From positions 1 to 64,000 of IMG/VR virus record IMGVR_UViG_3300022377_000098: a stretch of DNA of 64,000 nt; one strand, 5' to 3'. This stretch comes from a virus. Lineage: Duplodnaviria; Caudoviricetes. Below, piece by piece: positions 29,417 through 52,329 of this stretch. The notes under the pieces were generated by a model, which searched no databases, was not told the DNA's origin, and worked only from the letters and a program-made list of their open reading frames with translations. Every line of letters begins with the position of its first letter. The first letter of the stretch is position 1. A program made the position numbers and the translations under genes.

Positions 29417-31813
29417 TTAATTCCACCCCGTCATAACGCCACCATTAAAGTTTATTGTTACGGTACCGCCATCAGATTTTGTCAGTGGCCCGATTGAGCC
29501 ATTCCAGCCATTTGTACCGTTAATCGTAAGCCCACTACAATCTACTGTGCCACTCGTGGCAATCAATCCGTTTGCGTGCAGTTCATTCGCTTTCAGCGCG
29601 CCCATGATTACCTGTGCATAGCTGCCACTGTTACTAAAATATGTGCCATGCCCGCTTGTGGGCTGAAAGCACATATCATATGTGCCCGTTTCAGGGTTGC
29701 TGCTCACGCCCAAATGTCCCAGCTTAGAGCCGTTATAGTAAAAGTCAAATCCGTCACCAGTAAACTGTACGGATTGGCTTGAACCGTCCTTGTGGTTGAA
29801 CGCGTACACAATGGCATCTGAACTCTGCGTAATCGCTGTGCTAACAACCGAATTAACTTCTGTCCTCGATACCTTGCTGCTGATTTCATCCGCCTGCTGT
29901 GTAATCTGCGACTGCAAACCGCCCACCTTGTCATTGACGGATGACGTGATAGAGTCGGCAGTCATTTTTATTTCTGCGTTGGTTTTCGTTTCGGAGTTCG
30001 TCACAGACAAATCAATCGTGTTGTACAGTTGCTTAATGTCGCTCATTTCGTCACCGTGTGACACCGTGCTTTCCAGCCCGTCAGCAAGCTTCTGAATTTT
30101 GATGCGCAGTTCTTCAGATTTCGTGTTCAGCGCTTGTAATTCATCCCACAGCTTTTCGGATTCAGAATAAAAATCGGAGGAATTTTCGGCCTGCGACTTT
30201 GCTTCACAGGAGATTGCTTCGGCAGAGTTCAGCTTATAAGTCAGATTGGTAATGACTGACTTGCGTCCCTCAATGTCCACAATGTCCCCCGCTTCCAGTG
30301 CAGGGTTGCTGTAAATCGTTGCGCTGTATGGCGTAATGGTGTTGCCTATCAGGTGTGGAGCTATATTGTCCACAATCTGCTGCACATTTGCCACATCACG
30401 GTGCTGCCGGACTGTTACCAGTCTGCCGGGTAAATCCGAAAAATCAGCAGACGTCAGCAGCTTGCCTTTGTACTCAATCTTTGCCGCATCAATTCCAGCA
30501 AAGCAACTATCCGACTGCAAGCGTGCAATGTCGTTATACAACACATCTACCAGCGCATTTATGCACGTCCATGCGTTTGTGCCGCTTTCCTTGTCCGTCT
30601 TTTTTGTGATATATCCTAAGTCAGCGGTTAAGTCCGCTTCTTCCTGTGCCATGCTTGACTGCGCAGTTTCGTAATAACTGGTAATGTACTTTGTCAATCC
30701 GTCTGGCAAGTCCTGCTTTGGCTCAAATGCGGCCGTTGCAACAGTTTTCGCACTGTCCTTTAGGTATGCAATGCAGGACTTCACATCTGAATCATACTGT
30801 TTTGCGCTGTCCACAAAGGTTTTACGCTCCGCGTCCGTGGGATTGTATGTACCGCCGTACCGGCTGCAATAGTTTTGCAGTTCCACGCACTGCGATTTGA
30901 TTCCCGCCAGTCGCGCAGGTACATCCGTATCCTTGCTTTTGATGGCGGAGTTGATGTTGACCGCCCATTCGTCGCAAATAACCTGTTCATATATTGCAGC
31001 TTGCAGTAGCTTATTGTCAGAATCTTTCAGGGTAATTACATACCCATCGTTGCCGGACTTCGCGTCAACATTTTTACTGTCAATCTTAACGCCGGTCACG
31101 GTAATATTGTCTTTTGCAGGCTCATACTTCTGGTAACTGCTGATATTGTACGGTGCGGTTGAATAGTCAAACCACTTGAATTCAAGTTCTCCGTCCGCAT
31201 TGCATTGCGCATAACATCCTGCCAACTGTGCAATGTTCGCAATCACATCGTGATATGTGGAAGATGAATACTGCGGGTCTCTGAAAATCTGATAATCACT
31301 ATTATGAAAAGTTTTAGTTTTCAGTGAAATTCCGCACTTGTCACAAACCTGCTGTGCAAGGTTTCCCAATGTGACCGGATAAGTAACATCCATGTCAACT
31401 TTGCTGTCTGACTTAGAGAGATTTCCATATGCAGAAACCGTTATTGTATTGCGACCCTTGTAGTCATATGCGTTGTATACACCTTGCTTCACCCATTCTA
31501 CCGTGTCGCCGGTATAATCGCGCTTGACAACCATGCCAATGTACACGGTAATGCTTGCTTTGCAGAAATCGCACTGCGTAAACTTTCCGTCAAAGTTATT
31601 CAGCATGATTGTACATAAGTCTGTAATCGCGGAGCCTACTGTATAATCAGACTTTGAAGAAACTCCGCTATCAATGGTTACACTGCCTTGCATGATGTCT
31701 GCATCTTTTAGCGGGAATTCTGTTCCGTTTGCCAACTTCACATCTGCTTTGAAGTGGAATTCTCTGCCATTTAGCAGAACAAATTTCTAAAAATCATCCG
31801 ATACTGGTTTCAA
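29417..31813 (-). CDS. Minor tail / baseplate hub protein (1 in-frame TAG at codon 9)
   Basis: TTG start with AAGGTGG RBS; MKPVSDDF*KFVLLNGREFHFKADVKLANG continues into track ORF 29417..31741. Confidence 0.75.
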
Positions 31814-31826
31814 TCTATCGCCACCT

Positions 31827-32204
31827 TTACACTTCGACAAAGTCAAATTTTATGTTTGAAATCATGGACTGGCTAAACCGCCCATTTTGCTTCACAAAAT
31901 AATTGACTGGCGCGCTTCTGTCACCCACATAAAATGTTGCTGTGCGGTATCCTCCAAGCCTTATGTCCGGATATGTCAGCAGGAATGTTTCTGGCTGAAC
32001 GTGCTGTAACAGCACAGATGCTCTTGCTTCCGTCATAGGAGCCCATGTGCAAGTAAGCTTCACCTACTGTGCCACTCTATCTTTGTGCATTAACCCCTAC
32101 TGGTCGCGCCCTGCTTCTGAATCTGATATGTCTTGCAATGCCCATTCCATGGACTGCGGGGTTTCAATGGTGTTTCCGTTTACCATCAATGTTGACTGTG
32201 CCAT
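31827..32204 (-). CDS. Distal-tail-type (DUF6711-like) protein (in-frame TAG at codons 36 and 47)
   Basis: W.LQDISDSEAGRDQ*GLMHKDRVAQ*VKLTCTW ... TFYVGDRSAP; one continuous conserved domain across the TAGs at 32097-32099 and 32064-32066. Confidence 0.85.
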
Positions 32205-32330
32205 TCAGCTTCACCGTCCTTTACAATAAAAAAAGAGTATCACACTCATTTCTGAATATGACGCTCTTATGGCGCTCTATGAAAACATAAATTTTTTTAA
32301 TTATATTTTTATTTTAGCATGCTTGAACTG

Positions 32331-32351
32331 ATTTCGTCACTCAAAACCTGT
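32331..32351 (-). promoter_or_regulatory. Repeated phage promoter / regulator box
   Basis: ACAGGTTTTGAGTGACGAAAT is identical at 48953-48973 with a near copy at 58885-58902; each is followed by an AT-rich -10-like tract. Confidence 0.55.
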
Positions 32352-32380
32352 GAACTCAATGTTAATAGTTGCTTCCATTT

Positions 32381-32469
32381 GGTAGTCAATTTTTTTGACT
32401 AGGTGGTCTAATTTCTTGACTAGGGGTAGTCAAATAATTTGACTAGGGTAGTCTAGTTTCTTGACTACC
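32381..32469. repeat. Four ~22-bp palindromic iteron-like units next to an AT-rich tract
   Basis: GGT(A/G)GTC-N9-TTGACTA repeated four times, then TATAATATAATTATAATATATATA. Confidence 0.65.
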
Positions 32470-32634
32470 TCTAATCCTTTATTTAAATATAATATAATTA
32501 TAATATATATAAAGCGCGGAGTTTTTAAAAAAATCTCCACGCAAAATCTAAAAAACGCTTCGCAAAAAAAATTCTGGTCAAAGGGAAAAAGACAAAAGAA
32601 AAGACCCACTTGAAAAATCAAGTGAGCCTAATCG

Positions 32635-35600
32635 TTAATGAGTTGGAACGTAACGTCTACTATCGATTGCTTTGTAATTTTGAGTTGAATCGTAAATGCT
32701 CTTGCCGTCAAGGTCTGCTGTAACATGAAGTTGAATTGGTTTTCCGCTGTTACTTTGCAGAATTGCAAGGATTGCGCCAACCTGATTTACAAGTTCATTC
32801 TGATTGGATGAATTTGCTGAATTGCCATTTGTCTGCTGTTCAGCAATGCCCTGTGCAATCTCTGCATAGGACTCTTTACGCATTGGTAAAGCGGCTTCTT
32901 TTCCTTTTTCACCTATGCCTATCAGCGTAGGTGCGTCATAGATGCCTCCATTTGCGTTCCAACCGCCCCAATCGATGTTTCCGATACCTTTTGCGTATCC
33001 GTGTCCTTGTCCCCACACGCCGTCAGGAGAACCATAACGCGCCCATGTGTAACGGATGGACGCGAGGATGTTTGATAACGGGTCAAGAATGTTCGTGTTG
33101 TATCCGGGCAAAGCGTAAGTCGAAAATGTTTCAGGGATTAATTGCATCAAGCCTTTAGACGGATGCCCAGCGTAATAATTTACGTCATGCAGGTCTGACG
33201 GGTCGACCTGCCCACTGGATTCAGTGTTCATCTGTGCCAGCAGCAAATCCACATTGTGCGTGGAATAATGTCCAGTCATCATAAGCGCCTTAGATGCAAG
33301 GCTTCTCCACTGTTCAACTCCAGAGCCAACATTTGCAACCGCACTCATTGCAACTTCCATTGCACTCTTGAAGTTCGGAATGCCATAGCCAAGAATGTTT
33401 CCAGAGTTTGAATTGCGATGCTTTCTGAATACACCCTCTGCGCCATCGCTTCCACTTGTGTTGCCCTCAATCGTATTTACAAGACCGCTTGCAATGCTCT
33501 CAACGATGCCGATATGGTCGGCGGTACCGTTCTTGTCCCAATCATAGAAAATCAAATCGCCGCGTGCAGGATTGTTAGTCCAGCGGTTGGCTGACTTGAA
33601 ATGGCTCATGGAATCCTCGCAGGAAGCAGATAGATATTCATCCACTCCCGCACGTTTCAAACACCAAGACACGAACATATCGCACCAAGCGGCACCGTTC
33701 ATTCCGAAGTCGCGCCCAAACTTTGTGAAGTCTGCATGACCGGCATTGGCTGCTTTATCGTCCAGACTGCTGTTTGAACCTTTTTCGAGATAGCCCAATT
33801 CCGATTCTGCAATCTTTAGGAATGCTTCCACGGTGCCGTTTCCGGGTGCTGTAAACTCTGCGAGTTGCTTTTTGATGAAGTCAACGGAATGACTTGTCAA
33901 GAACTGTACTGTGCTCTTTTCCATCTCGTTCCATGGGAAGTTAATGGATTGCATAGCCGTGTTTTTGTCTATAGCGGCGTGTAAGAGCATTTCGGGTTTG
34001 TCTAGGTAATTCCATATGTTTGTAGAAAAAGTGTCTAGAACGGCCTTAGAAGTGCCGAAAAAGTCGCCTATACCGTTCGCATAGTGTGGGAACATCTGCT
34101 TTGTCTGTTTTGCAGGCAGTACAGACGAACCGGCAGGCAAATCAGGAATCAGCACATTGCGCCCTTGCGGAATAAATGCGTGACCGTTTGGGAGCTGAAC
34201 CATTTCGCGATAAGTAGAGCCGGATTGGTCGTTGACAAGTGCTGCTCCGCCCGGATGATGCCCTGAACCATAGGCATAGTGTTTGATGCTGATTGGCTTT
34301 ACAGTTGCTTTAGAACCGACCGCAGACAGCACAGAGTTGATGCCCGCCACTACACCATTAATTGCGCCACCAATTTTATCAGCAACATTGTTGTTGATGG
34401 CTTTGGAATGCTGATTCACAATGTTGTCAGAATCGCTCATGTAAATCTGTGCCGACTGTTTCACTTTACTGAAATAAGTACTTGCATCAGATGAAATTGC
34501 TTTGAATTTACCGGAAGCATTGCTGTACATGCTGGAAGCTTTGGAACTCACATCACGTTCAGCAGACGCAAAGTTGCTCTGTTCAAAAGACTTTGCAGCA
34601 GAGAAATTTGCATTTGCACTTTTGGAAATCCCACTGAACTTTCCATCAATGAATGTGCTAATCCCATTCCACTTTGTGTTTGTGTCTGTCTGGATAGTGG
34701 CAGATGTATCAGAAACATTTGCACTGATTCCTTTCAGAAGCGTAGGCACAGAATTGTTCAGGCTTGCAGAGATTTCCTGATACTTTTTTGCGGTATAGTC
34801 TGTTTCGTCTGAAACAATTTTCTTGCGGGTGTCGGCAGAAGTGCGAAGATTGTCTGTAATCTGCTTAACCTTTGCACCGGATTCTCCCAAAATGCTGGAA
34901 TCGGTCTTTCCATTAACATTGAACACATTAGCAATAACTGTGCTTCCACTTTCGCCAGACGTTTTAGAATTTTCCACAATTCCCTTTGCGAGAGCGGAAA
35001 ACGTGCTGCTGTTCAATGGTAAAATAGCTTCGGAACCGGCCTCACCGACAACAGATAAAATTGGAGATGTTGTAATGCCACCCCTTGCTGAAAATGCAAC
35101 ACCAAGCAATTTAAGGATTTTGGGTATTGCCCCACTTATTAATCCTGCTCCACCAAGAGCGCCAGCTAAATCAGAACCGGCTTTTGGCGGGTTTGTCTTT
35201 TGTATGGCTGCAGTCTGCTTTCCAGCCGAGTTCCACGCTTGACTAAACCAGTTTCCCACACTTTGCAGTGCTTTCCCAATGTTCTGAAATACAGTTGAAA
35301 AAGCAGTAAGCTGATACTGACAAGTCTTTTGCGTGTTGGTCTGCAGATTTGTTCCAAACTTTGCAAAATCGTCTGATATGCCTTTCAGCTTTGCGTTAAC
35401 CCGGTTGTGAGTTTCTCCGAGATAATATGATGCACTTGTGAGCACAGCTAACCATGTTGTTTTTGCCAAAGTCGGTATGCTTTTTGCGATATCCTGAAAA
35501 CTCTGATTTGCGCCTTTTGAAAAGGCACTTACCTTATTGCCTGTTTGAGAATTGAGTTTTGATGACGTTTGAGAAAGTACGCTTTGCCACATTGCACTTG

Positions 35601-37749
35601 TAGCAGCAGTGACAGTACTTTCCATTCCACTAAATATCGATTCTGAATTTGCACTAAATCCAGATAACTTTTTTTGTGCTGACTGTGACTTTAGGCTCGT
35701 TTCAGAGTCAATATGGCTCCACGACTGCGCCCATGATGCTGCCATTGCAGTACCTGCCGCTCCAAATGAAACCTGCATATTGGTTGATAGAGAATTTACT
35801 TTTTCTTCTACAGGCTCAAATGATGGCAGAAATAAAGAAGAATCGAGCGCTGGAATTACTGCCGGCTGTACTTCTGGAGCGGAAATTGGCTGCTGATACA
35901 AAGCTTTACCATATAGAAAATAATCAAGCACAACCGCAGGAGCGATCAGAGGTTCAAATACTGGTGCTGCTACAGGCTCCTGATACCTGCCTTTTGACTT
36001 CTGGTAATCTCCATCATCCAGAGGCGGCACATACACTGGAGGAATTTCAAGGCTAGGAACCGGAATCTGCTGAACTGCTTTTGCAACAGCTTCTGCTCCC
36101 TCTTTAACCTTTTGAGTAACGGTTTCAACGCTTTTCTTAGTTGCCTTTTCTTCCTTATCCCTTTTGTCGTCAATCTTGTCAAAAACACCTTTAATGTTCT
36201 TGAAAAGGTCGTTAAAATTCCAGTTTGACTTTGGAGTAGGAATTGTTTTGAACATTTTACTATAGTCAGGGTCACTACTCTTTTTACTGTCAGAATCAGA
36301 GGACTCTTTTTTATTCAGAACATTCAGTTCATCAAACCCCATAACCGTTCTCTGGAGTTCTTTTACTTTCTTCTTTGCCTTATCAGCACTGTCGCCTGTT
36401 TTGTCAAGTGAAGCAGCATAGTCAACATTCGTCTTTGTTGCAATAGTGACAGTCTTTTGCCCTGTAATCTGTGCAATGAAAATTGCAAGCTTATTAGCCG
36501 CTGCCGCAATCCCGTCTACAATATTAGTTATTGCCGGAGAAATTGCTTTCAATATTGCTAAAAGCGGTGCTGCAATCGCATTTTTTAGGTAGGTGAAACT
36601 GCTCATATACTTTGACAAAGTATCATTTGCGTCTTTATTACCTAGCGCAGCGTCTTTGAACCCTTCTGTAATACTGTTAAGTACGCCCTGAAACGCAGTG
36701 AATGCAATCATTCCAGTCATCATGTGCTTGATAATCGTTAGAGTGCTTTGGCCTGCGCCTTTTGCTTTGTTCCCCGCTCTTTCTGATTTATTACCAAACT
36801 TATCCATAGCAGAACCAGCTTCATTCGTAGTGGAAGCAATCTGCTCCATCTTCTCCGCAACTTTCTGCTGCTTTGCGGTTAGGCTGTTCATGGAATTTCC
36901 AGCCTTTAATACTCTGCTTTCCAGCTTTAAGTATTCCTCACTGCCAACGCCCTTTGAAGCGCCTGCTTCTTGTGCCTTTACTTTCAGATTTTGGTACGCA
37001 GTGGCGGCATTGTCAATCTGTGCAGCAAGTGACCGCAACTGTGCTTCAAGATTTGCAAATTGTGCGGCAGAATCACCAGAAATACCATTCATAGAGGATT
37101 TCAGACGTTCAATATACTGCGTCACTTCCTCAATGGCTTTTGTAGAATGGCTCGTGTTAACTTGCGCTTGCGTAGGCTGGCTCATAGCCTTTCTCAAATC
37201 AGAAACGTTCGGTTGCATAGAATGGTTTGCACTCACAGATTCACTTGCTTGACGCTGCAACGCAGACTGTGCAGCTTCGGTTGACATTTTATCAGTGCCA
37301 CCATTGACATATCTGTCTACGGCTTTTGCCGCTAAATCAGTAATGGAATTGTCAGAATCCGCCATAAATTTTTTAGCCTGCGCCGTCTTTTCAAGAGCAG
37401 CAGACAATTTTTCTGCTTGAATCTGTGAGCGTTGCATGGACACGTTTGCACGGTCAAGGCGCGCCTGATACATAGCCATGTTTGATTCTGCTTTTTTGGT
37501 GGCCTGCACATTTTTGTTTGTAACGTCTGCCCCCTCTTTTTCTGTATCATAGAACTTTTTAAGAGAAGCAAACGCTTTTGAAGATGATGCAATTTTGTCC
37601 ATTTCTGCCGTAAAAGATTTCAGTGCAGGAATTGACTTAGTTAATGATGATTGGAAAGACTCAATCTTAGCAATCAGTTTGTCTAATGCACTATTTGCTT
37701 TTGTGGCAGAAGCCTATATTTCAATGTCAAGGCTGTTATCTTCTCCCAT
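32635..37749 (-). CDS. Tape measure protein with CHAP-like and lytic transglycosylase-like C-terminal domains (in-frame TAG at codon 12)
   Basis: MGEDNSLDIEI*ASATKANSALDKL joins track ORF 32635..37602; WCDMFVSW/HIGIVE and ESSG..GLMQLIP.TF motifs. Confidence 0.88.
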
Positions 37750-37813
37750 AAATAATCACACTCCATCTATATAAAAATAGGGATACAGCACGTCTGCCAT
37801 ACCCCTGTTTTCG

Positions 37814-38185
37814 TTAACATCTTCGTTCTCCCGTAATGACTTTGGGAGCAGTGCCGTTAAGCATTTTATCAATCTCCTCTGACCGCTTACGGAAGTATGT
37901 TTCCATTGACTGTTGCTGCTCTTTTACAGACTCTTGCTTGCTCTTGGGAGCAAGCATTGATTCTGGCTTTGTCGGATACTGTACGCTGTCAGTTAAACAA
38001 GCGCCAACAGCCTGCATTACATAGTAGCCTTGCAACCATGCAGCCGTATCAGCCCGCTGCTGCCATAACTCAATTTCAGCTTCATGCTTTATGTTGTAGG
38101 CATTCACATAAAGCCAAAACAATTCTGGTTCAGCGTTCCAAAACTCGTCATAGCTACACCCTGCTATTACGGCCAATGGGAACAA
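37814..38185 (-). CDS. Tail assembly chaperone-associated ORF
   Basis: G.SYDEFW..EP......Y..AY...AWLQG.YV..AV motif; between chaperone and TMP; true start uncertain. Confidence 0.7.
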   Translation of the reverse strand: MFPLAVIAGCSYDEFWNAEPELFWLYVNAYNIKHEAEIELWQQRADTAAWLQGYYVMQAVGACLTDSVQYPTKPESMLAPKSKQESVKEQQQSMETYFRKRSEEIDKMLNGTAPKVITGERRC

Positions 38186-38235
38186 TTCACATTCAAATTG
38201 TTCAGTTGCAGTTTTGTACTGCTTTTGCGGTTCTG

Positions 38236-38571
38236 TTACGCTGTTTTCTTCGGAGCCACGAGAAATGTCTTGCTCTTTGCAGACTTCCCGCCCTCGGTAA
38301 AAACCTCCATGAAAGGCTCTACCAGAGCACTGTAAATTTCATCCACTCCGAATTCTTCGATTGCCTTATCGGAAATTTCAACAGCTTCGGAATAGCTGAT
38401 ATTCGGGTGGAACTTACCAAGCCCGCAGTAAAACAGTTTGTCGGCAGAAGTGTAGATTTTGTCCTACAGGTCGGAAACATTGCCGCCGATGCTCTCAAAC
38501 TTACGAACAGAAGCGCGGTCATAGAACAGTTTGTAGGTCTTTTCACCCACATTTACATCAAAAGAATTCAT
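38236..38571 (-). CDS. Tail assembly chaperone (in-frame TAG at codon 36)
   Basis: GGAGG RBS; MNSFDVNVGEKTYKLFYDRASVRKFESIGGNVSDL*DKIYTSADKLFYCGL; missing from the ORF track because of the TAG at 38464-38466. Confidence 0.8.
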
Positions 38572-38613
38572 ATTGTTATACCTCCGTTACATTCCTTAAA
38601 ATTTTAGTTTCTG

Positions 38614-39051
38614 TTAAACAGTAGCAATCATTGTGCTTGTGTCTGCTACATGGTCGTGACTGGAAACGTTGACTGCCAGAGAGCACTTGCCTGCCTGCCC
38701 AGCAGAATAACCACTAATCCATGTTGCACCGGTTCCGACAAAGTGTTCGCCGCTGCCATCCTGATAGACAATGAGAAAATCCTTTGGAATTTTCAAACTT
38801 ACATATCCGCTTACAGCCGTATAGTTTGCTTCGGTGTGGTTGTACTCGAAATCATATGTAGGCGTGTCGGGACGGTCGGAAACGTACTGCTTGTATTCAC
38901 TGTCCAATGTGGTAACTTCCAGTTTGTTAGGAGTGCCACCGGTGTCAGGAGTCTTAACAACGGATACCAGCTTTTCATACTAGCCAGCATCGTTCTTTTT
39001 CATCAGTTTAATGCCAATATCAGTAAGTGCAATAACATTTGCATCAGCCAT
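38614..39051 (-). CDS. Major tail protein (in-frame TAG at codon 24)
   Basis: GGAGG RBS; MKKNDAG*YEKLVSVVKTPDTGGTPNKLEVTTLD; TAG at 38980-38982. Confidence 0.85.
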
Positions 39052-39068
39052 ATTTTATACCTCCGTAT

Positions 39069-39467
39069 TTACGAATAGATTTTGTTTCGGTAAGCGTCAT
39101 ACCGGCATGAATACCGCATAACGTACCTATAAATTGTCGTGTCTGAAACGTTCTGCATTGTGCCGGAAAACTCGCACTTCATGTGCAAGTCATTTTCCAG
39201 AGAATCAGCAATAGCAGAACGGATTTTCATAGCTGTGGTTTCAGCAGTGCCGCCTTTAGTGTAAATCTCAATTTGGCAGGTAAATGAATACTTGCGTTCT
39301 CCATAATCAAGCGTGTGCTCAATTTCAGGGAAGTCAACATTCTGCACTGTGACATACGGGAATTGTGTGGACTGATTCTGAAAAGGCTTTACAACCAGTG
39401 CAGCAGGACATACAGAAAGTACCGCTTTCTTGACATATGTATAAACTGCATTTGTAAGGTCAACCAT
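39069..39467 (-). CDS. Tail terminator protein
   Basis: 132 aa; FPYVTV, QIEIY motifs; synteny. Confidence 0.7.
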   Translation of the reverse strand: MVDLTNAVYTYVKKAVLSVCPAALVVKPFQNQSTQFPYVTVQNVDFPEIEHTLDYGERKYSFTCQIEIYTKGGTAETTAMKIRSAIADSLENDLHMKCEFSGTMQNVSDTTIYRYVMRYSCRYDAYRNKIYS

Positions 39468-39951
39468 TCACAATCACTCTCAATTCCTTATCGGTTAGTT
39501 CTTTTGCACGTTGTTTCAAATACTGTGCCGTCTTGTAAACAAAAGCGTTAGCAGGTTGTCCTTGCGTCCAACGTAGTTTCTGCGCCTTTTCATCAAAGTA
39601 CCACCATCCGGCAGTGCCATGACTGTTTGAATCATACACCCATCCGGGAGCAGGATTAGGATGTGGACTGGTTGCGCCTTTAATCCCGGTTCCATACTCA
39701 ACAAAGATAGCGTAGTCTGAACCAACCGAAATTCTTCCAGTACAGGTTGATTCATCAAACGTGCTGGAAATGCTGTCTGACAGTTCCCCCGTAGAGCGTT
39801 TGACGACTGACTTCATGTAATCGCGCCCCTCTTGCGTAAGCTGCGAAATCACGCTTGCAAGGGTAGAATCAACCTTGGAATTCAGACTTTCCAGTTGCTT
39901 TTTTGCTTCTTCCACAGACTATGGAGAAAGTGCATCAAAAGAGATTTTCAT
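39460..39951 (-). CDS. HK97 gp10-like neck protein (in-frame TAG at codon 11)
   Basis: MKISFDALSP*SVEEAKKQL; TGELSDSI, YAIFVEYGTG motifs; TAG at 39919-39921. Confidence 0.85.
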
Positions 39952-40352
39952 GTTTCTGTGCCTGCGACCTTTTTAATGTACACAGCATACTGCCAACCAG
40001 TGAAAATTACCTGTTTGACTGTATAGTTGTTGTTCATCGGGTGCTCTGCATCATCGTCCCGCAAGTTTCCGTTTGGTGTGACTCCGTACCATGCCGCTTC
40101 AAATTCCTCTGGAGAATACCCCTCAACATCAAACGGTGTGAACACGCATTTCTGCATTTTGGAAACGTCAGCGCCGTACTCTTGAATGTCTGCCGTATCG
40201 GTTATTGGCTGCACGTTCACATGGAATTCGGCAGGTTCGTCATAGCAGGAAATCATGTTCCCTGTTTCGAGCCCATTTTCGTCTTTTTCAGGAACAGGCG
40301 GCAGTTTCTTCGCAAACCAGATTGACTTTTTATCTTTGTTCAGGCTTCTCAT
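39948..40352 (-). CDS. Head closure protein
   Basis: MRSLNKDKK..W, DENG.ETG....Y..P motifs. Confidence 0.75.
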   Translation of the reverse strand: MRSLNKDKKSIWFAKKLPPVPEKDENGLETGNMISCYDEPAEFHVNVQPITDTADIQEYGADVSKMQKCVFTPFDVEGYSPEEFEAAWYGVTPNGNLRDDDAEHPMNNNYTVKQVIFTGWQYAVYIKKVAGTET

Positions 40353-40669
40353 GAAACCATCACCGCCATAGGAATGACTTCTTTCAGCAGGGAATCAGGA
40401 ATATCAGCATTTTCATAAGAGCGGTTGACTCCGTTCTCATTGTGAGCCGTTTCCCCCTCCGCTCCTTGCTTGTTATAAAGAAAAATTGCAATCTGAATTT
40501 GCAGTTCGTTATATTGGCTTTCCAGTGGAGCGTCAGGCGGTGACCGTCTGCGCTCTTTAATTCTCGACTCTGCCCGGTCAAGCATAAGGTTCAGCTTTTC
40601 ATCCTAGGAAGTGTCGATTACTGGAATATCAAGCCATACTTTCAGCTAATCAAGCTGTGTAGTAGTCAT
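40349..40669 (-). CDS. Head-tail connector (in-frame TAG at codons 8 and 22)
   Basis: MTTTQLD*LKVWLDIPVIDTS*DEKLNLMLDRA ... NKQGAEGET.H.ENGV.RSYE. Confidence 0.85.
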
Positions 40670-40674
40670 TGATA

Positions 40675-40830
40675 TTATCCTTTCCGCGTTACTCGTTTCT
40701 TCTCTGTGACGGCTTCTGCTACAGCGGGCTTAGAATCTGTATGCACCGGCTGTTTTACCGGCACATCTTCACCCGCCATATAAAACTTGTCACCATGTTT
40801 TACAATGTGGTCGAATTTCACAGCAATCAA
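40675..40830 (-). CDS. Small hypothetical virion-module protein
   Basis: 51 aa, H.VKH.G.FY.AGE.VP; overlaps the capsid stop codon. Confidence 0.5.
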   Translation of the reverse strand: MIAVKFDHIVKHGDKFYMAGEDVPVKQPVHTDSKPAVAEAVTEKKRVTRKG

Positions 40831-41906
40831 GCCACCTTTGCAACATAGACTTCGTCCATACGCTCATAGGACGGCGCAAGGATTTCGGAAGCGGTGGTAA
40901 TGGTCTGGTACGGCGCTTCTTTTGTGGTACTTACGGTGATGGTGATACCTGTGTTGAAGATAGCAAGCTGGTTGCCAGCCTGACGTGCAGAGCGTTCCTC
41001 CGGTGTCATGCCATACCACATAGTGCCAACGGAGCCGCCAGCGGGCAGGAAAGTAACATAACCATCCGGCATAAACGGATGTGCAGTGCCATCAATGCCC
41101 TTGTACATCTTATCGTAGACAATAATATCAATGCCGCACTTGATACGTAAGAACTGTGCAAGCAGATTATCATCCATGAAGATGTTTGCAGTAGCGTTCT
41201 GCGCCAGAATTGCAGACTTAATCTGTGCATTCTCCGGCAGATTATCAAACGTTGCCTGTGACATAATGGCAGTGGACAGCACTGTTCCGTTCTCTTTCAG
41301 AGCATTGCGCTTGATGGTACGAATGTCAGATAGCGGCTTAGAATTAGCCGTATCACTCCACAGGTTTGTGCCGGTCAAAGCAGTGTAGTGCTTTGCTTTC
41401 CATGTGCCGTCAGCATCATAGTTCATGGTGTAACTTGCACCATCTTTTCCAGTCAAATTGATAATGGGACTTCCGTCAACTGGTGCAAGCAGACTGAATG
41501 CCATAATTTCAGGCACTACCATAGCACCATCACGCAAAGTACCAGCATCATCAAAGATGCGGTTCAAAACGTCCTGCACAAACGGGTCGTTTGCATCACG
41601 ATTCTGCACTTCCATCAAATCCTGAATGTCCTTTTCTTTGACAATCATAGACTCACGGAAGAATGCCAGTTCCGTTTCAGAACGGCTCACACCTGCACGG
41701 TCGCGGAATGTCGGCTTTGCATCAAAGCTAGACAGATTGATTGCAACCGGAAGTCCCTTTGTGCCTTTCAGCCAAGACACAGTTAGCCCGGTTTTCTTTC
41801 GCGGTGCGAAGAAAGCACTGCCAAGATACGGGATTTCATTGGAATACGCAGTTGTCCAATCGTTTGCAACTGCATTTGCCGTAAAAATGTCCTAAAGTTC
41901 AGCCAT
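40827..41906 (-). CDS. Major capsid protein, lambda gpE-like (in-frame TAG at codon 5)
   Basis: AGGAGG RBS; MAEL*DIFTANAVANDW...IPYLG..FF..RKK.GL.VSWLKG; TAG at 41892-41894. Confidence 0.9.
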
Positions 41907-41921
41907 ATTTTATTCCTCCTA

Positions 41922-42236
41922 TTAGCCGATAAACTGAATATCTTTCAGTGCGGTTTTTGCTTCTGCTGCCGGTGCTGCCGGAAGTGCCGCGCTTTTGATA
42001 AATCCGTGGATAACAATAGTTGCGGTGCGGTCACCATCTGTAACATTTGTGTCAAACAGCAACACACCCTCTGCTGTTGCATCGTTTGCGGGGAGAATTG
42101 TGCCAGCCGGTACAATCTTTTTTCCCTCTGAATTCGCGGTTACGCCAGTAGCACTAACGGTGTACGGCTTGCCAACATAATGGTCGTTGTACAAAATTTC
42201 TTTTGTTGCAGTAACCGTTTCAGTTTTTACATTCAT
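41922..42236 (-). CDS. Head decoration-like protein
   Basis: GKKIVPAGT..P....A.GVLL.D.NVT.GD....IV.HGFI motif. Confidence 0.7.
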   Translation of the reverse strand: MNVKTETVTATKEILYNDHYVGKPYTVSATGVTANSEGKKIVPAGTILPANDATAEGVLLFDTNVTDGDRTATIVIHGFIKSAALPAAPAAEAKTALKDIQFIG

Positions 42237-42919
42237 TTATTTGTACCTCCCAATCTGTAGTGGTCGATTGCGGACTTTGCTGCTTTTGCGTGTTCAGTAG
42301 TGTCCCTACCTAGCACTTTGAGAATGTTAGTAGAAGAATCACCTGCAGGCTTACTGTCCGCATTCCCTGCTTTTGGCGGCTTTGCGCTCGCCATTTCAGC
42401 CTTGATTTTATCATTGGCAATCTTTTCCGACTGCGCCTTAATAACGTCAATCACGGACTTCACGGCTGCATCAGTGGTATCCTTGTCGGCTGTTACAACC
42501 GTGTCAAGAATCTTCGAGTATGCCTTTTCATCAACGCCTGCAAGCACGAACTGGCGCTCTGCTGAAAGCCTGTTGCGGTCTTTCGCAAGGCCGTTCTTTG
42601 CGGCTTCAATTTCCGCTTTTGCATCATCAATCTGCTTTTTAGCCAACTGGTCTGCGGTCATTTTGGACTCTACTTCCATTTGACTCTTGATTTCTTCGCG
42701 CAGATTGGTTTCGCGGGTTTTCAATGCCTGCTGAATCGCGCGGTCATAATCTCCCTGTGATTCAAAAGTCTTAAAAGGCTCTGACTTTACTGTAATTCCG
42801 TCTGCTTTTTGCGTTACAACCGTTGAATCGCCTGTTGATGCATTAGCAACGGCGCTTACATTTGCGTCAGCGCTGGACTGAACAGCGGTTCCGACTGCTG
42901 TATTAGCTTCTTCTGCCAT
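42233..42919 (-). CDS. Capsid scaffold protein (DUF4355-like)
   Basis: F..Q.D.DR.I..AL.T, coiled coil; upstream of the capsid gene. Confidence 0.75.
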   Translation of the reverse strand: MAEEANTAVGTAVQSSADANVSAVANASTGDSTVVTQKADGITVKSEPFKTFESQGDYDRAIQQALKTRETNLREEIKSQMEVESKMTADQLAKKQIDDAKAEIEAAKNGLAKDRNRLSAERQFVLAGVDEKAYSKILDTVVTADKDTTDAAVKSVIDVIKAQSEKIANDKIKAEMASAKPPKAGNADSKPAGDSSTNILKVLGRDTTEHAKAAKSAIDHYRLGGTNK

Positions 42920-43033
42920 TTTTCTTTCCTCCGTTGTGCCGCACCGTAACAGATATATAGTCCTCATAAGTGTTCAATCTGTGCCGTTGCGTCTGATTGT
43001 TTTTGATTTATAAGTAAGTGGAATCCCACATAC

Positions 43034-43420
43034 TCACGAATTTAAATAGTCTGCGATTTCAGACAAACTCTTGAAATATTTTCCACCATTTCGCTGAACC
43101 ATAAGGCCAACCCTATCAAGGGATTTATACTGTCCAATGCTGAACTTCAAATCTGGTTCATCAATAAAGGCGAATACGGTCTTTTCAGGGCGTTTGTTGC
43201 TATCGTCAACGACTTCTGCAATGCTGTAAACTCCCTGCATTCGTGGAGTGATAACGTACAAGCAAAAATCATCATTTGTGCGCTCCTGCAATTCCTACTG
43301 ATAGCATTCTTCTGTCCAGTCAGGTACAACCGGATTGAAATAATCAATCTACAGCATTGAAATCAGTTTTTTACGCCATTTGCTTTCTGCACAGGTGCCG
43401 CCTAAAAACACTTTCTACAT
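43034..43420 (-). CDS. Nucleoside 2-deoxyribosyltransferase-like protein (in-frame TAG at codons 2, 24 and 42)
   Basis: M*KVFLGGTCAESKWRKKLISML*IDYFNPVVPDWTEECYQ*ELQER..DFCLYVITP.M.GVYSIAEVVDDSNKRP. Confidence 0.85.
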
Positions 43421-43438
43421 ACTGTTATGTCCTCAATT

Positions 43439-44245
43439 TTATAGACAAGCGGAAAATTTCTTCCGTGTGCCGTCTAGGTAAATTATCGGTGTATCTTTTG
43501 AAGATGGTTTGAATTCACCAGTCTGCCCATAGCCACCATAATCAAGGCAAGCAGACGTGTTTACAAATAGCTTGTCTACCGATGACACGGTGCTATTGCG
43601 AATGTCTGCCCTAAAGAAAGATTCTTTTAATACCATAGGCAAGTGCGTATGGCTATGAATGTAAACGTCTGCATCAACAATGCTTTCCATATCAGCAAGG
43701 CGATTTATCTTTGAACCCTCTTTGCGGCCACCACCACTTCCATGCGTGGCATAAATGGTGTAGCATACCATTCTACTTTTGCCACTTCCATTGGTTTCCT
43801 TGTGGCCGTCAGACGTACTCCCAAATCTAAGGAATATGAAGTTTCCCTCTGCACAATATCTATCTTCTATGCCGAGTTCCCTCGCAATCAGCCTTGAAAT
43901 ATCAACACCATCCTGCCGGTAAACTCTCCGTTCGTGATTTCCGTCCTGCATAGAAACAATCTTGTCTTTTATTGGAAAAAGCAAGTTGCAGCATTCTTCA
44001 ATCTCTTGCATTGGGGAGAGCCTTTCAGCATAGCAATCTGATACGCTTGTTTTAGTTGCCGTGTTCATTAGGTCGCCATTAAGAATGCAATATGCATTTT
44101 CGGTGTCATGAATATGGTCTATGCGTTGCTGAATCAGCTTCCTGTCACAGGCTTTATCACCAATATGTAGGTCGCCTATTACATTCAATTCAACCGAACT
44201 TAGATTTCGTGAAAGGTCTGCTTTAACAATGTGAATTCTAATCAC
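43439..44245 (-). CDS. Calcineurin-like metallophosphoesterase
   Basis: GDLH.G, GDL.N, GNHE, H, H.H metal-binding motifs. Confidence 0.85.
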   Translation of the reverse strand: MIRIHIVKADLSRNLSSVELNVIGDLHIGDKACDRKLIQQRIDHIHDTENAYCILNGDLMNTATKTSVSDCYAERLSPMQEIEECCNLLFPIKDKIVSMQDGNHERRVYRQDGVDISRLIARELGIEDRYCAEGNFIFLRFGSTSDGHKETNGSGKSRMVCYTIYATHGSGGGRKEGSKINRLADMESIVDADVYIHSHTHLPMVLKESFFRADIRNSTVSSVDKLFVNTSACLDYGGYGQTGEFKPSSKDTPIIYLDGTRKKFSACL

Positions 44246-44270
44246 TTCCTTTGCTTATGGTTCTATAACA

Positions 44271-44344
44271 TGGAGCGAATAACCAGAATCGAACTGGCAC
44301 CGTCTGATTGGAAGTCAGAAGTTCTACCGTTGAACTATATCCGC
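44271..44344 (-). tRNA. tRNA-Gly (TCC)
   Basis: GCGGATATAGTTCAACGGTAGAACTTCTGACTTCCAATCAGACGGTGCCAGTTCGATTCTGGTTATTCGCTCCA. Confidence 0.88.
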
Positions 44345-44411
44345 ATAAGTGAATAGCTTTACCGCACGCTGTGGCGGTCGTTTTGCAGGCAGTAGGCTAT
44401 TAGACTTGCCG

Positions 44412-44463
44412 TGGTGGAAGATTGAGGAATCGAACCTCACTTCATGTGCACACCTTTTCTTCC
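44412..44463 (-). ncRNA. Miniature tRNA-like RNA (acceptor + T arm + CCA)
   Basis: GGAAGA...TGAGG TTCGATT CCTCA ATCTTCC A CCA; 52 nt; no D or anticodon arm. Confidence 0.5.
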
Positions 44464-44476
44464 ATAAAGCGGCATT

Positions 44477-44635
44477 TCAGCCGCAATGATTTCTTCCAAT
44501 TTGCAGAAGCGTTTGCTTTTTGATTTCTTGCAGCCGTTCAAGTTCTGCAATCTGCTCTGCGTTTGGGCGTGGCAAAGAGCGGATGTTATCTATCTGCTTA
44601 TTTACATCACGCCACTGTTTCACGCTGTCATTCAT
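44477..44635 (-). CDS. Small hypothetical protein
   Basis: 52-aa ORF coupled to the upstream stop codon. Confidence 0.4.
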   Translation of the reverse strand: MNDSVKQWRDVNKQIDNIRSLPRPNAEQIAELERLQEIKKQTLLQIGRNHCG

Positions 44636-44852
44636 CTGCTTTTGTAAGGTCGATGTCTTTTAAAAACTTTTCAAAGCTGTCACGATAACGAGCAATTATA
44701 ATTGTCATTGCCACATATGCCACGGCAAAGAATGCAGTTACAACAATCAGGGGCAAGAATACTACCGCCCACGGAATAGCAGGAAGTGCAAGCAGCTTCA
44801 AGAGCAAAATCAGCGCTGTAAGAACCGAAGTTGGAATATAAATCTCTTTCAT
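44628..44852 (-). CDS. Small membrane protein
   Basis: Two hydrophobic segments; LLKL...I.W..VFLPL. Confidence 0.65.
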   Translation of the reverse strand: MKEIYIPTSVLTALILLLKLLALPAIPWAVVFLPLIVVTAFFAVAYVAMTIIIARYRDSFEKFLKDIDLTKADE

Positions 44853-45082
44853 TTTTTCTCCTTTTCCACATTAGCTCGCAATTTCTTGATATAAGCGTCA
44901 GATAAGCTTGTTTCGCAATTTGTTGCATTGAGTTCAAGTTTTAGTATGGGAAGCGAATGGACGGAATCCTGCAAGAGCGTAAAAGACCTTACGTCATGAA
45001 TCTCATGTCCATCTATGAAGATGCGGGTAATTGCGCAGTTGGTCTTAGCTTGAACCTCACCTTTAATCTGAATATTTTGCAT
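44849..45082 (-). CDS. Hypothetical protein
   Basis: 77 aa with GGAGG RBS. Confidence 0.6.
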   Translation of the reverse strand: MQNIQIKGEVQAKTNCAITRIFIDGHEIHDVRSFTLLQDSVHSLPILKLELNATNCETSLSDAYIKKLRANVEKEKK

Positions 45083-45160
45083 TTTAAATACCTCCGTTAA
45101 TTAAAAAATAGCCGAAGCAGACAGCCTATTGGCTGCAAGTTTCGGTTCTCTTAGGAACTC

Positions 45161-45328
45161 TTATTTTATGTACCCACTCTGCATATTCCCACAACGCGGG
45201 CATTTGACTTCATAGTATCCGTTAAACTCACCCAGTTTTTTGTTGCACTTTCGGCACCGGGCTTCCTTTAGATTCGGTGTTGTTTGTTGGATTCGCAAGT
45301 TGTTTGCTGTCTGAACTTCCTTTAGCAT
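45161..45328 (-). CDS. Com-like zinc-ribbon regulator (55 aa)
   Basis: EARCRKCNKKLGEFNGYYEVKCPRCGNMQSGYIK identical to the prophage 1 copy; overlaps the portal 3' end. Confidence 0.75.
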   Translation of the reverse strand: MLKEVQTANNLRIQQTTPNLKEARCRKCNKKLGEFNGYYEVKCPRCGNMQSGYIK

Positions 45329-46829
45329 CTGATTCCTCATTTCCTGTAGGAATTGTGTTGTTTGTAGGCGCAAGCATAGCCGCCGCTTCATCCGTTTTCT
45401 GCTTCCAATATTCTTCTCCACGCTTTGCCATTTCGTTAGGCATTTCTGTAAAGTTGGAAAGCTCAATCGCATCTGTAGGAGTAAGAACTTTAGTCGCCAT
45501 CAAAGTTGAAAGTGTCTGCGACTTGTTAAGCATATTGTTTGTGCGGTTACGGACAAAGTTTACCTCAACATCCATCGGCTTGATGTCAATGTTGCTGAAT
45601 CGCTTTAAAATCTTGCAAACCATACGGAGCATTTGCTTTTCTGACTTCTTGAAATTTCTCTGCTTACACCGTGCTACAACTTCAAGGCTCTGGTATCCGT
45701 CACGCAGATAAACTGCATCCCCTGTGTCGCCAGTGCCGCCGCCCTTTGCCTTACGGTCAGGAATTCCGGTAATGGCGTACACATAGTCAATCAAAGTCTG
45801 TGCAAGCGTTTCAGCTTCGTTCTGATTGACGCCGGAATTTACATACTTCACGTCTGCTGGATTCTGCTGGTCGGAAGTCATTTCAAGAGCCATGCCTTGC
45901 TTCATCTTTTCAAAATCAGAAGTCCCACCATTCTCTTTTGCCGTTTTCAAGTGGCAGTTCACAAACACAAGCAGGCTGTTTACAAGCTGTTCAACACTGT
46001 TTACACGGTCACTGTGCAGCTTGTTCAACGCGTCAAGAATTGTCAACACGGATTCAAAGTCGCCCATACGGCACTGATTGTTTTTGTACTCCACAATTGG
46101 AACAGCACCAAGCAAATGTGCTTTTGGATATCCGCTTACAAGGTCTTTTGCAGTAATAGTTGTCTGTACTCCAGCGACTTCATACTGATATTGGTATGTG
46201 TTGTCATACACCGTGTACACTCTGCCGGTTGCGTTTCCGTAATCATCTAAAATATCAGAGAACGTAACGCCAAGTACAGGCTTTTTTACAGAATCAGTGG
46301 AATAAATGACGAATGTTGAACGTGCATCAAGTGTCGGAATCTCAAATGGTGCTTCATCCTCATCGCATTTTTCATCCACCGCAACAAGACGATATCCAAC
46401 GCCACAAACGGAAGCACTTTCGCCAACGTCCATGTCGTTTGCGGCTTTATCTTCGCTGTCCATATACTCATTTAGAGAGTCAATATCGCTGCGCTCTTTA
46501 TCGCTACCGCCTTTTGAAGTGTACTTGATTGGCTCGCCGAGGAAATAGCCGTTTGCGTTACGCACAATAGCCAGAGCGTTGTTAATCACGATGCGGTTAT
46601 TGATTTCCGGCCTAACCTTTTTTTCGCGGTAAATGATTGGCTGATTGCCTTTGTAGTAATTATACAGATATTCAATTTCCTGCTGATTATTTGCAAACTG
46701 TACCATAGCGCCGTTTACGATTCCCGGTATGGTTTCTTCACTGATTTCATTTGAAGTGCATAATTCCTATCTACCTAAAAATGTATGGTCTTCACCATAC
46801 CATGCAGTGGATAGAATATCTTCAATCAT
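45228..46829 (-). CDS. Portal protein, SPP1 gp6-like (in-frame TAG at codon 21)
   Basis: HTFLGR*ELCTSNEISEE..; YY.G.Q.I...NNRIV.N.A..IV....GYF.GEPI motif; TAG at 46767-46769. Confidence 0.9.
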
Positions 46830-47630: not shown

Positions 47631-47681
47631 ACAAAGATACCCGCCATTGTGCACATTGTTAAGAGGTGAGGTGGGTTTGTT

Positions 47682-52300: not shown

Positions 52301-52329
52301 TTGACAACCAATGAGTTGACGACTATAAT
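52301..52329 (+). promoter_or_regulatory. Consensus sigma-A promoter
   Basis: TTGACA-N17-TATAAT. Confidence 0.8.

Follow-up and report, generated by a model that had tools for sequence, protein, structure and literature searches.

Amber codons cluster at the starts of late genes in an integrated temperate siphovirus with a lysine-type suppressor tRNA

The window analysed here, a stretch of 64,000 nucleotides from IMG/VR virus record IMGVR_UViG_3300022377_000098, carries genes of Prophage 2, an integrated temperate siphovirus of about 53 kb from a gut bacterium. An integrase, CI/Cro-like genes and host flank were found, which identifies the element as a canonical integrated temperate prophage, and the lysogen context assumed in the initial annotation therefore holds. 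Genes were called independently on the minus strand, and the statistics below cover 23 late genes. The following features are relevant:

25963-26232, minus strand: holin (PF04531); no in-frame TAG
26525-27376, minus strand: endolysin (phrog_435 / Amidase_3); no in-frame TAG
29417..31813, minus strand: tail protein (798 aa, TTG start at 31813), phrog_6616 alignment spanning the site; TAG at codon 9 (31787-31789)
31827..32204, minus strand: DUF6711 tail-associated protein (125 aa; phrog_1194, PF20458); TAG at codons 36 and 47
32635..37749, minus strand: tape measure protein, TMP (1,704 aa; TMP PHROGs); sole TAG at codon 12 (37714-37716)
38236..38571, minus strand: tail assembly chaperone-like gene (111 aa; orthologue alignment); TAG at codon 36
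38614..39051, minus strand: major tail protein (145 aa; phrog_158); TAG at codon 24
39460..39951, minus strand: neck / tail-completion protein (163 aa; phrog_5); TAG at codon 11
40349..40669, minus strand: head-tail adaptor (phrog_132, residues 2-97); TAG at codons 8 and 22
40827..41906, minus strand: major capsid protein (phrog_29 / PF03864); TAG at codon 5 (41892-41894)
43034..43420, minus strand: nucleoside 2-deoxyribosyltransferase-like gene (128 aa, non-virion; PF15891, residues 2-70); TAG at codons 2, 24 and 42
45228..46829, minus strand: portal protein (phrog_64); TAG at codon 21 (46767-46769)
47064..47139, minus strand: amber-suppressor tRNA, anticodon CUA (ARAGORN; Rfam tRNA, 56.1 bits)
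48989..51727, minus strand: large terminase TerL with intein (PHROG terminase matches interrupted by the insertion)
52043..52071, minus strand: predicted promoter-like site, perfect sigma-70 consensus (12/12) with extended -10, called by consensus match alone
67404-67406 of the contig, outside the 64-kb window: TAG at codon 30 of RusA

The consensus promoter-like site at 52043..52071 precedes the HTH gene, TerL, Ant, the tRNAs and the portal gene, and the only strong promoter-like site of the late block is the one upstream of the suppressor tRNA. A second, spare copy of this tRNA is carried by a neighbouring 23.6-kb element; it is functional, yet not required by that element's own genes.

The suppressor that the initial annotation had presupposed is thus present on the phage, between TerL/Ant and the portal gene. 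It has a tRNA-Lys-type body with A73, among the annotated tRNAs of the phage collection it matches tRNA-Lys best, the closest full-length matches have the anticodon CTT, and it differs from the second copy by compensatory changes in the stems. A tRNA-CUA is also found in the relatives L001 and L002 and in none of the standard-code relatives. Engineered tRNA-Lys(CUA) suppressors insert lysine at amber codons in Escherichia coli. In the alignment column of the RusA TAG, lysine occupies 78 of 119 homologues (66%), and glutamine is outside the six commonest residues (at most 3 homologues). The tRNA-Lys body and the predominance of lysine at the TAG columns of RusA, DUF6711 and the major tail protein make lysine, not glutamine, the most likely reading of TAG, as was implied by the TAG-to-AAG replacement proposed in the initial annotation; at about half of the sites the aligned residues are polar and variable. 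NCBI genetic code 15 (TAG = Gln) was considered and appears not to apply, since the tRNA body is lysine-like, the TAG columns are rich in lysine, and a single-nucleotide AAG/TAG difference distinguishes L001 from L002. As in other recoded phages, the TAGs align with sense residues, a matching tRNA is present and the recoded genes never end in TAG.

The alignments with orthologues and the comparison with L001 and L002 give the following picture gene by gene. TerL, about 1.07 kb longer than in L001 due to the intein, shares its TAG at codon 83 (51479-51481) with L001 and L002, and its other TAG, at codon 366 (50630-50632), lies within the intein. Portal codon 21 is R or Q in relatives, with the orthologue alignment crossing the site, and is TAG in L001 and L002 as well. 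In L001 the deoxyribosyltransferase-like gene has TAG at codon 2, GAT at codon 24 and CGT at codon 42. The capsid ATG is preceded by an AGGAGG ribosome-binding site, the capsid alignments begin at residue 3, and the codon-5 TAG is common to L001 and L002. Both TAGs of the head-tail adaptor are kept in L001, and its orthologues have N at codon 8 and Q or K at codon 22. Codon 11 of the neck protein is K or S in orthologues (alignment from residue 2), codon 24 of the major tail protein is K in 3/3 nearest standard-code orthologues, codon 36 of the chaperone-like gene is K/K/R (alignment from residue 1), and codon 47 of DUF6711 falls in a column with at least 90% lysine (18 homologues). The TMP has, as originally described, a single TAG at codon 12, which is kept in L001 and crossed by an orthologue alignment starting at residues 1-5. 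An in-frame scan of the called genes found no TAG in the scaffold, the 134-aa head-tail gene, the tail terminator, the fibre, the endolysin or the holin; thus about half of the virion genes are without TAG, and endolysin, holin, scaffold and tail fibre are unlocked as the initial annotation had said.

It could be argued that the starts are mis-called and the TAGs lie in 5' leaders, or that the prophage is gathering nonsense mutations, and indeed standard-code gene callers give shortened genes that begin after the TAGs. However, strong GGAGG-type ribosome-binding sites and tight gene packing are found at the upstream ATGs, and alignments with standard-code orthologues and family profiles run upstream of and through every TAG site, with codon 2 of the deoxyribosyltransferase-like gene at the extreme edge of its alignment. 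Because ribosome-binding sites are present and homology continues through the TAG sites, the starts are taken as genuine. Furthermore, the genes are interrupted exclusively by TAG, with not a single TAA, TGA or frameshift, a matching suppressor tRNA exists, and relatives with 82-88% nucleotide identity have the same TAGs, so that an artefact or decay is highly improbable. A decaying prophage with pseudogenes was rejected specifically, as the lesions are TAG-only and 10 of 12 comparable TAGs are shared with these relatives. Programmed read-through giving two isoforms, as in Q-beta A1, was likewise rejected, since TAGs at codons 2-47 lie ahead of any functional domain.

In total, 17 in-frame sense TAGs were counted: the 16 of the initial annotation, all reproduced at their codon positions by the independent gene calls, and the one in RusA. 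The position list was exact, but the interval to which it had been assigned (31787-46829) leaves out the two TerL codons. Codons 1-50 hold 15 of the 17 TAGs (14 of 16 in the original count) and make up 15.6% of the coding nucleotides of the 23 genes (binomial P = 8e-11), and only 2 TAGs lie elsewhere. In the same genes, out-of-frame TAG trinucleotides are length-proportional (17 vs 96; Fisher P = 3e-9). TAG density per 1,000 codons is 17.4 in codons 1-25, 8.7 in codons 26-50, 0.9 in codons 51-100 and about 0.2 further on, which is a roughly exponential decay and a 50- to 100-fold density gradient along the genes. The enrichment in codons 1-50 is 34-fold for TAG and 2.4-fold for the runner-up codon, and the same count found no 5' bias of Lys codons (80:422) or Gln codons (35:236). 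As a fraction of Lys-equivalent codons, TAG falls with position from 17% to 12%, 1.3% and 0.3%; in codons 2-25 it is nearly as frequent as AAG (10 vs 15). Overall, sense TAG amounts to about 0.2% of late codons. Without suppression, translation of 11 genes would end within 47 codons, in agreement with the cheap early abort described before. The clustering of ambers at gene starts is therefore a confirmed and unusual layout, which does not by itself prove a purpose-built lock: genes with at least one TAG number 11 of 23, compared to 11.0 expected under random scatter, and the claimed placement of one early amber per essential virion gene thus shows no detectable design.

The recoding is not genome-wide, as already noted in the initial annotation. 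TAGs are sparse in the late genes, and no sense TAG was found among 21 curated early genes of the prophage, whose apparent in-frame TAGs precede the true starts. TAG is the terminator in at least three genes (early genes and the HTH gene) and ends none of the 23 late genes, which shows that it stays a stop in early genes and is sense in 12 genes of the prophage. In the nearest standard-code relatives TAG stops are already missing, whereas more distant relatives use them in 15-25% of genes. The gene at 58453-58860 is ambiguous in this respect.

The recoded clade is narrow, with at least 98% capsid identity, and the next relatives (69% capsid identity) use the standard code; because the pattern is confined to this one clade, it is effectively one evolutionary sample. 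At 12-18% nucleotide divergence 10 of 12 comparable TAGs are retained. Among the TAGs common to the window and L001/L002, 9 of 10 lie within codons 1-50, whereas the six lineage-specific ones, including an AAG/TAG polymorphism at portal codon 311, are three proximal and three distal, which is expected if distal ambers are transient. In codons 1-50, conservation between the two lineages is 9/11 and does not exceed the synonymous baseline of about 0.7, so that positive maintenance is neither supported nor excluded.

Phages with recoded stop codons are known, and such recoding has been suggested to control the timing of late genes; a TAG that most likely means lysine and is biased to gene starts is a variant of it. 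The TAG-recoded gut prophages Garnet and Topaz, for which a late-gene/lysogeny-switch model is presented by Borges et al. (bioRxiv 10.1101/2021.08.26.457843), likewise have their own suppressor tRNA, TAGs in structural and late genes, an integrase and early genes compatible with the standard code, a lysogen context and relatives in which TAG stops were depleted before recoding. In contrast to them, TAG here most likely stands for lysine via a tRNA-Lys-derived suppressor instead of glutamine, the sense TAGs number only 17, with 15 in codons 1-50, and the lysis genes are not recoded; a term search of that preprint yielded no treatment of where within genes the TAGs lie. The typical TAG=Gln phage phAss-1 (OQ749652; PMC10607447) shares with the prophage a suppressor tRNA-CUA and virion genes interrupted by TAG. 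However, the first 50 kb of phAss-1 contain 214 in-frame TAGs, about 1.5% of codons, evenly spread along genes (14 in codons 1-50, which hold 8.9% of codons), whereas those of the prophage are start-clustered and sparse (about 0.2%). By analogy, the closest functional counterpart is the control of TTA-containing genes by the tRNA-Leu(UAA) bldA in Streptomyces (Chater & Chandra 2008, as cited in PMC4255298), where, according to that account, one dedicated tRNA gates a gene set and the gating codon is start-biased and missing from growth genes. Correspondingly, TAG is absent from the 21 early genes here and 15/17 lie within codons 1-50. Unlike here, bldA reads a rare sense codon and its failure leads to stalling, not release-factor termination, and it serves cellular development without a code change, not a phage.

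Particle production of the classical T4 and lambda amber mutants of late genes depends on a suppressor host; different from those laboratory mutants, the ambers of the prophage are natural, multiple and conserved, and the suppressor is phage-borne. The layout is probably, though far from certainly, explained by position-scaled selection on late genes that would rely on the phage-borne tRNA-Lys(CUA), with the cheap-abort dependency as a by-product. Suppressor and release factor 1 (RF1) presumably compete for the ambers. Termination near the start would be cheap, with a peptide of fewer than 50 residues, and the cost may rise with the aborted length by wasted synthesis and by truncated structural proteins able to poison assembly. 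Selection scaling with codon position would then remove distal ambers and leave proximal ones in place; the roughly exponential decay matches such a removal in proportion to the cost of the aborted products. With too little suppressor, the terminase, portal, capsid, adaptor, neck, tail tube, chaperone, TMP and two tail proteins would stop within 9-83 codons. Since the tRNA sits in the late gene block and is probably co-transcribed with it, protein output may be more than linear with late transcription. The result would be a threshold filter and not the two-input AND gate proposed initially, which needs an independent input: a suppressor located between TerL and portal, inside the operon it appears to unlock, suggests feed-forward or threshold behaviour. 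Whatever regulatory benefit the layout may bring is one that we infer.

The initial annotation favoured a stronger reading, in which positive selection has placed early ambers in virion genes and thereby keeps leaky late expression in the lysogen silent until the suppressor is available; this might also bring strong nonsense polarity on the operon and hide capsid, portal and terminase from defence sensors. We regard it as possible but rather unlikely. Early ambers do occur in eleven genes, including eight core virion genes and the terminase (TerL at codon 83), the early genes lack sense TAG and use it as their stop, the element is a true lysogen, and a leak would be plausible from the predicted perfect promoter at the head of the late block. 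The retention of 10/12 TAGs despite the divergence, the functional spare suppressor kept by a neighbour whose own genes do not need it, and the start bias of bldA/TTA as given in PMC4255298 point in the same direction. Against this stand a gene occupancy equal to random scatter, a conservation not above the synonymous baseline, the missing TAG in half of the virion genes and in either lysis gene, and a suppressor that has no evident independent input. Ambers also lie in two non-virion genes, RusA and the deoxyribosyltransferase-like gene, and in the TerL intein, which speaks against one amber per virion gene and for position-scaled selection. Two observations speak against tolerance: TAG is not visibly disfavoured compared to AAG in codons 2-25, and the highly expressed capsid and tail tube carry it where yield loss should cost most, which fits a selected function better. 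What stands of the translational lock is thus sparse early ambers together with the tRNA in a lysogen, but the decay is equally expected from purifying selection against aborted products. A third possibility is incipient codon reassignment with no regulatory role, where a new tRNA-Lys(CUA) is on whenever the phage is active, TAGs drift in, and the 5' bias marks where the new codon is tolerated, such as loosely constrained protein N-termini. The very narrow recoded clade next to standard-code relatives, the prior depletion of TAG stops in these, and the half of TAG sites on variable polar residues agree with it. However, strongly conserved lysine columns are hit (RusA 66% K, DUF6711 at least 90% K, tail tube 3/3 K), Lys codons themselves have no 5' bias, and a 34- to 50-fold gradient requires position-dependent selection, which makes this explanation improbable.

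With its suppressor of tRNA-Lys origin, only 17 sense TAGs and the steep density gradient, the prophage resembles an initial, or else a purposely sparse, stage in the use of a stop codon as sense. The gradient offers a natural record of how cost depends on position when decoding is ambiguous, and is directly relevant to the "ambiguous intermediate" route of codon reassignment. It is decidedly doubtful that the 5' ambers form a redundant lock under active maintenance, in a phage code (TAG = Lys) not described before. If true, ambers placed right at the beginning of many late genes would keep the aborted product minimal, maximal nonsense polarity on the long late operon would keep promoter leak off the unlocked lysis genes, and the tRNA would be a contested resource, since the neighbouring element holds an unneeded spare. 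The layout also offers a compact and testable design rule for tRNA-gated expression, with a parallel in the bias of bldA/TTA: the gating codon should lie no further than about 25-50 codons from the start. Annotation by the standard code and by table 15 both mis-translates such phages, and in the prophage gene callers shorten 12 genes at the N-terminus.

The virus record comprises 72,269 bp in all, the first 64 kb of which form the window. Two elements lie within it, each transcribed mostly on the minus strand, and their main features are as follows:

About 0.03-26 kb, mainly minus strand: smaller tailed element with its own tRNA-CUA at 15214-15289
About 26 kb to beyond the contig end, mainly minus strand: prophage 2
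54-72 kb: early and replication genes of prophage 2
52071-52043, minus strand: perfect sigma-70 consensus (TTGACA-17-TATAAT, 12/12), which by its match leads into the HTH-TerL-tRNA-portal block
52301-52329, plus strand: perfect 12/12 sigma-70 consensus, diverging from the minus-strand one and leading into a 2-kb plus-strand insert

The early and replication genes of prophage 2 are followed by a small-terminase candidate, the plus-strand insert, which has no family matches, an HTH gene, TerL with a putative intein, and Ant. Then come tRNA-Met, tRNA-Ser, the suppressor tRNA-CUA (47064-47139), portal, tRNA-Gly, scaffold and capsid, and finally connectors, tail tube, chaperone, the 1,704-aa TMP, tail proteins, fibre, endolysin and holin. 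Prophage 2 is also present in bacterial contigs of 122-333 kb, where host ABC-transporter genes are found at its far end, together with a tyrosine integrase, RecT, RusA, and a CI-like HTH repressor opposite Cro-like genes. The joint presence of host genes, integrase and CI/Cro-like genes there marks prophage 2 as a canonical temperate phage, integrated and about 53 kb long. Between the holin of prophage 2 and the lysogeny genes of the neighbouring element there is a 48-aa piece of the anaerobic ribonucleotide reductase NrdD (16071-16217 of the further DNA stretch L026, equivalent to about 26.1-26.2 kb of the window), which points to an attachment site within nrdD, either shared or tandem. Past the window, the contig end (71932-72269; 9932-10269 of stretch L012) is an array of tandem repeats of about 24 bp, which falls within a 401-aa early gene that is intact in the larger contigs.

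All 16 in-frame TAG codons listed in the initial annotation (codons 2, 5, 8, 9, 11, 12, 21, 22, 24, 24, 36, 36, 42, 47, 83, and 366 of their genes) were reproduced by our own gene calls with TAG read through. Codons 83 and 366 belong to TerL, beyond the region 31787-46829 to which the annotation had assigned the set, and codon 366 falls within the putative intein. An extra sense TAG is codon 30 of RusA, just outside the window. The proposed bias toward gene starts is thereby upheld: in the 23 genes, codons 1-50 account for 15.6% of the coding nucleotides but for 15 of 17 sense TAGs (binomial P = 8e-11). Out-of-frame TAG trinucleotides of the same genes track length, with 17 in the first 50 codons and 96 beyond, compared to 15 and 2 in frame (Fisher P = 3e-9). 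Per 1,000 codons, TAG falls from 17.4 (codons 1-25) to 8.7 (26-50), 0.9 (51-100) and about 0.2 beyond, and its share of the Lys-equivalent codons in the same bins is 17%, 12%, 1.3%, and 0.3%. The Lys and Gln codons of these genes have no bias toward the 5' end. A general rare-codon ramp is ruled out, because TAG is enriched 34-fold in the first 50 codons and the next codon, CGA, only 2.4-fold.

Reading through TAG might push open reading frames upstream and so create early TAGs by construction. This artefact is excluded by ribosome-binding sites and gene packing, orthologue alignments and family profiles, which all support the upstream starts. The upstream ATGs are served by GGAGG-type ribosome-binding sites and directly adjoin the stop codons of the preceding genes. 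Alignments with standard-code orthologues begin at residues 1-13 and run through the TAGs of portal, capsid, adaptor, neck, tail tube, chaperone, TMP, DUF6711, and TerL, and PHROG and Pfam profiles span the TAG sites of adaptor, DUF6711, a tail protein, RusA and the deoxyribosyltransferase-like gene. The sequence around the 17 sites has no common motif. A purine directly follows TAG in 14 of 17 cases (baseline 0.67; P = 0.13), and a nearby in-frame restart codon follows in 4 of 17, with about 2.7 expected from a rough hand estimate. Within portal codons 10-19, directly upstream of TAG codon 21, there is a terminator-like hairpin with a T-run (46783-46800, minus strand), which may be due to chance. 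The ORF 58453-58860 (minus strand) opens with ATG TAG AAA, as does the deoxyribosyltransferase-like gene (43034-43420); it has neither a ribosome-binding site nor a family match and is an ambiguous, possible 18th sense TAG.

Regarding the amino acid inserted at TAG, the best annotated matches of the suppressor among 50,697 phage records were all tRNA-Lys, and the two closest full-length matches carry the anticodon CTT, one base from CTA. No tRNA resembling it was found in the E. coli collection. The column aligned with the RusA TAG is K in 78 of 119 homologues, with Q outside the six commonest residues; no solved structure was matched by the RusA sequence. At DUF6711 codon 47 the column is at least 90% K, in the tail tube it is K in 3/3 nearest orthologues and in the chaperone K/K/R, and the remaining sites are aligned with variable polar residues (S, N, T, R, Q). 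Moreover, the recoded IMG/VR relatives L001 and L002 differ over 16,145 nt by a single nucleotide, at position 5776, which is portal codon 311 and reads TAG versus AAG; the window has AAG. From the tRNA matches and these alignments, lysine is the best-supported meaning of TAG and the suppressor is not Gln-like, so that NCBI table 15 would not fit this phage.

The early ambers had been interpreted as a lock, with one amber per essential virion gene aborting translation cheaply until the suppressor is made, and thus as an AND gate. The cheap abort stands, since eleven genes would end within 47 codons without the suppressor and TerL at codon 83, so that by this layout the phage depends on the tRNA, with cheap aborts wherever it is lacking; the designed AND gate is not supported. 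A proximal TAG is present in 11 of 23 genes, which equals the 11.0 expected from random scatter rather than one amber for each virion gene, and TAG also occurs in RusA, the deoxyribosyltransferase-like gene and the TerL intein candidate. Furthermore, the suppressor is located inside the late block, between TerL and portal, and the single strong promoter-like site leading into this block lies upstream of it. Occupancy, non-virion TAGs and this location together argue against a designed gate with one lock per virion gene. So do the genes that are free of TAG: endolysin, holin, scaffold and fibre, as had been noted correctly, and likewise the tail terminator and another connector gene. In the promoter-site scan no convincing promoter of the suppressor's own was found, and apart from the two perfect consensus sites promoter-like sites occurred at chance frequency. 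Rfam gave no ribozyme or other known RNA adjoining the suppressor. A weak match to abiF RNA between tRNA-Met and tRNA-Ser (47639-47675, minus strand) scores 32.2 bits, under the gathering score of 37.

The best reading is a suppressor-dependent late translation in which the persistence of ambers would be set by how costly failed suppression is. Were the tRNA transcribed together with its targets, output would rise approximately as the square of late transcription, and the layout would act as a threshold filter and not as a gate with two inputs. Suppression would probably compete with RF1, and what a failure costs would decide where ambers may persist. The near-exponential fall in TAG density is what nearly neutral theory predicts if the selection coefficient increases as the aborted product gets longer. 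Classical genetics has found nonsense polarity to be strongest for promoter-proximal ambers, and polarity could possibly be an added benefit of early ones. A selected lock, in which early ambers are maintained as a designed block, is a live rival. TAG retention among the relatives (0.82) is not significantly higher than same-codon retention of Lys (about 0.7), and thus decides neither for nor against positive maintenance. Between the window and L001/L002, 10 of 12 comparable TAGs are common, namely nine proximal ones and TerL codon 83; these are all comparable proximal TAGs except codons 24 and 42 of the 128-aa deoxyribosyltransferase-like gene. Six are lineage-specific, three proximal and three distal (TerL 146, the polymorphic portal 311, and the TAG in the intein candidate). 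Young ambers anywhere and old ones only at the 5' end are what purifying selection on distal ambers would predict, though the numbers are small.

In prophage 2, sense TAGs are absent from all 21 curated early genes, and the in-frame ones that seem to occur there precede the actual start codons. TAG is the stop codon of at least three genes (60137-60403, 61434-61715 and the HTH gene before TerL), each with another stop 5-31 codons later, and no late gene uses TAG as terminator. The recoded relatives found are two IMG/VR contigs with 82-88% nucleotide identity and one fragment. Scans of viral contigs for the tRNA pattern returned only the two contigs already known, and neither the capsid scan of genome contigs nor megablast against phage records gave a match; the metagenome scan added a recoded fragment of 1.2 kb as well as standard-code relatives. 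In the list of capsid homologues, no cluster falls between 90% and 69% identity. From the sparse matches and this gap it follows that the recoded clade is narrow, and that the pattern is carried by one narrow clade only. The next relatives (capsid identity 68-69%) are without sense TAGs, have no tRNA-CUA within the 21-kb regions read around their capsid genes, and use TAG stops in 0/16 and 1/14 cases in the structural module. In a more distant group (47-49% identity) 15-25% of genes terminate in TAG. This fits the path from stop depletion via suppressor gain to accumulation of sense stop codons, as published by Borges et al. (bioRxiv 10.1101/2021.08.26.457843). In four sequencing runs, contigs from RNA libraries are identical to 37820-43198 and as contigs reveal neither expression level nor the tRNA. 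Relatives of 85-95% occur in manure and wastewater runs, in contigs that do not show the letters at their TAG sites.

Prophage 2 is a member of the known class of stop-codon-recoded phages, but differs from them in lysine as the probable amino acid, in its sparse TAGs with strict 5' placement, and in lysis genes without recoding. In 50 kb of phAss-1 (TAG = Gln), 214 in-frame TAGs are spread evenly along the genes, 14 of them in the first 50 codons, which hold 8.9% of codons; judged on this one comparator, the 5' bias is not general. Literature searches found no analysis of stop-codon position within genes of recoded phages. The late-gene and lysogeny-switch idea is contained in the portions of the Borges preprint (bioRxiv 10.1101/2021.08.26.457843) matched by a term search, and an analysis of position within genes is absent from them. 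Functionally, prophage 2 resembles bldA/TTA control in Streptomyces, with which it shares the gene-start bias of the gating codon (TTA; PMC4255298).

The second tRNA-CUA (15214-15289, minus strand), in the smaller tailed element, is related to the suppressor and has compensatory stem changes relative to it, by which both copies look functional. The genes of the smaller element have no in-frame TAG, the apparent ones being upstream of true starts, and several of them end in TAG; its tRNA amounts to a spare key for which the element itself has no lock. The two elements share a 165-bp block with 97.6% identity (15296-15460 and 45105-45268), which lies just upstream of the tRNA-CUA in the smaller one and at the portal 3' end in prophage 2, where it holds a terminator-like hairpin (45126-45110). 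Further short blocks are common to both (19028-19124 and 55299-55395; 16685-16764 and 53058-53137). TerL (48989-51727, minus strand) carries an insertion of about 1.07 kb (about 50220-51300), which is absent from the close relative L001 and holds one of the two distal TAGs. Since its frame is kept open and it matches helicase- and primase-associated PHROG regions, the insertion is most likely an intein.
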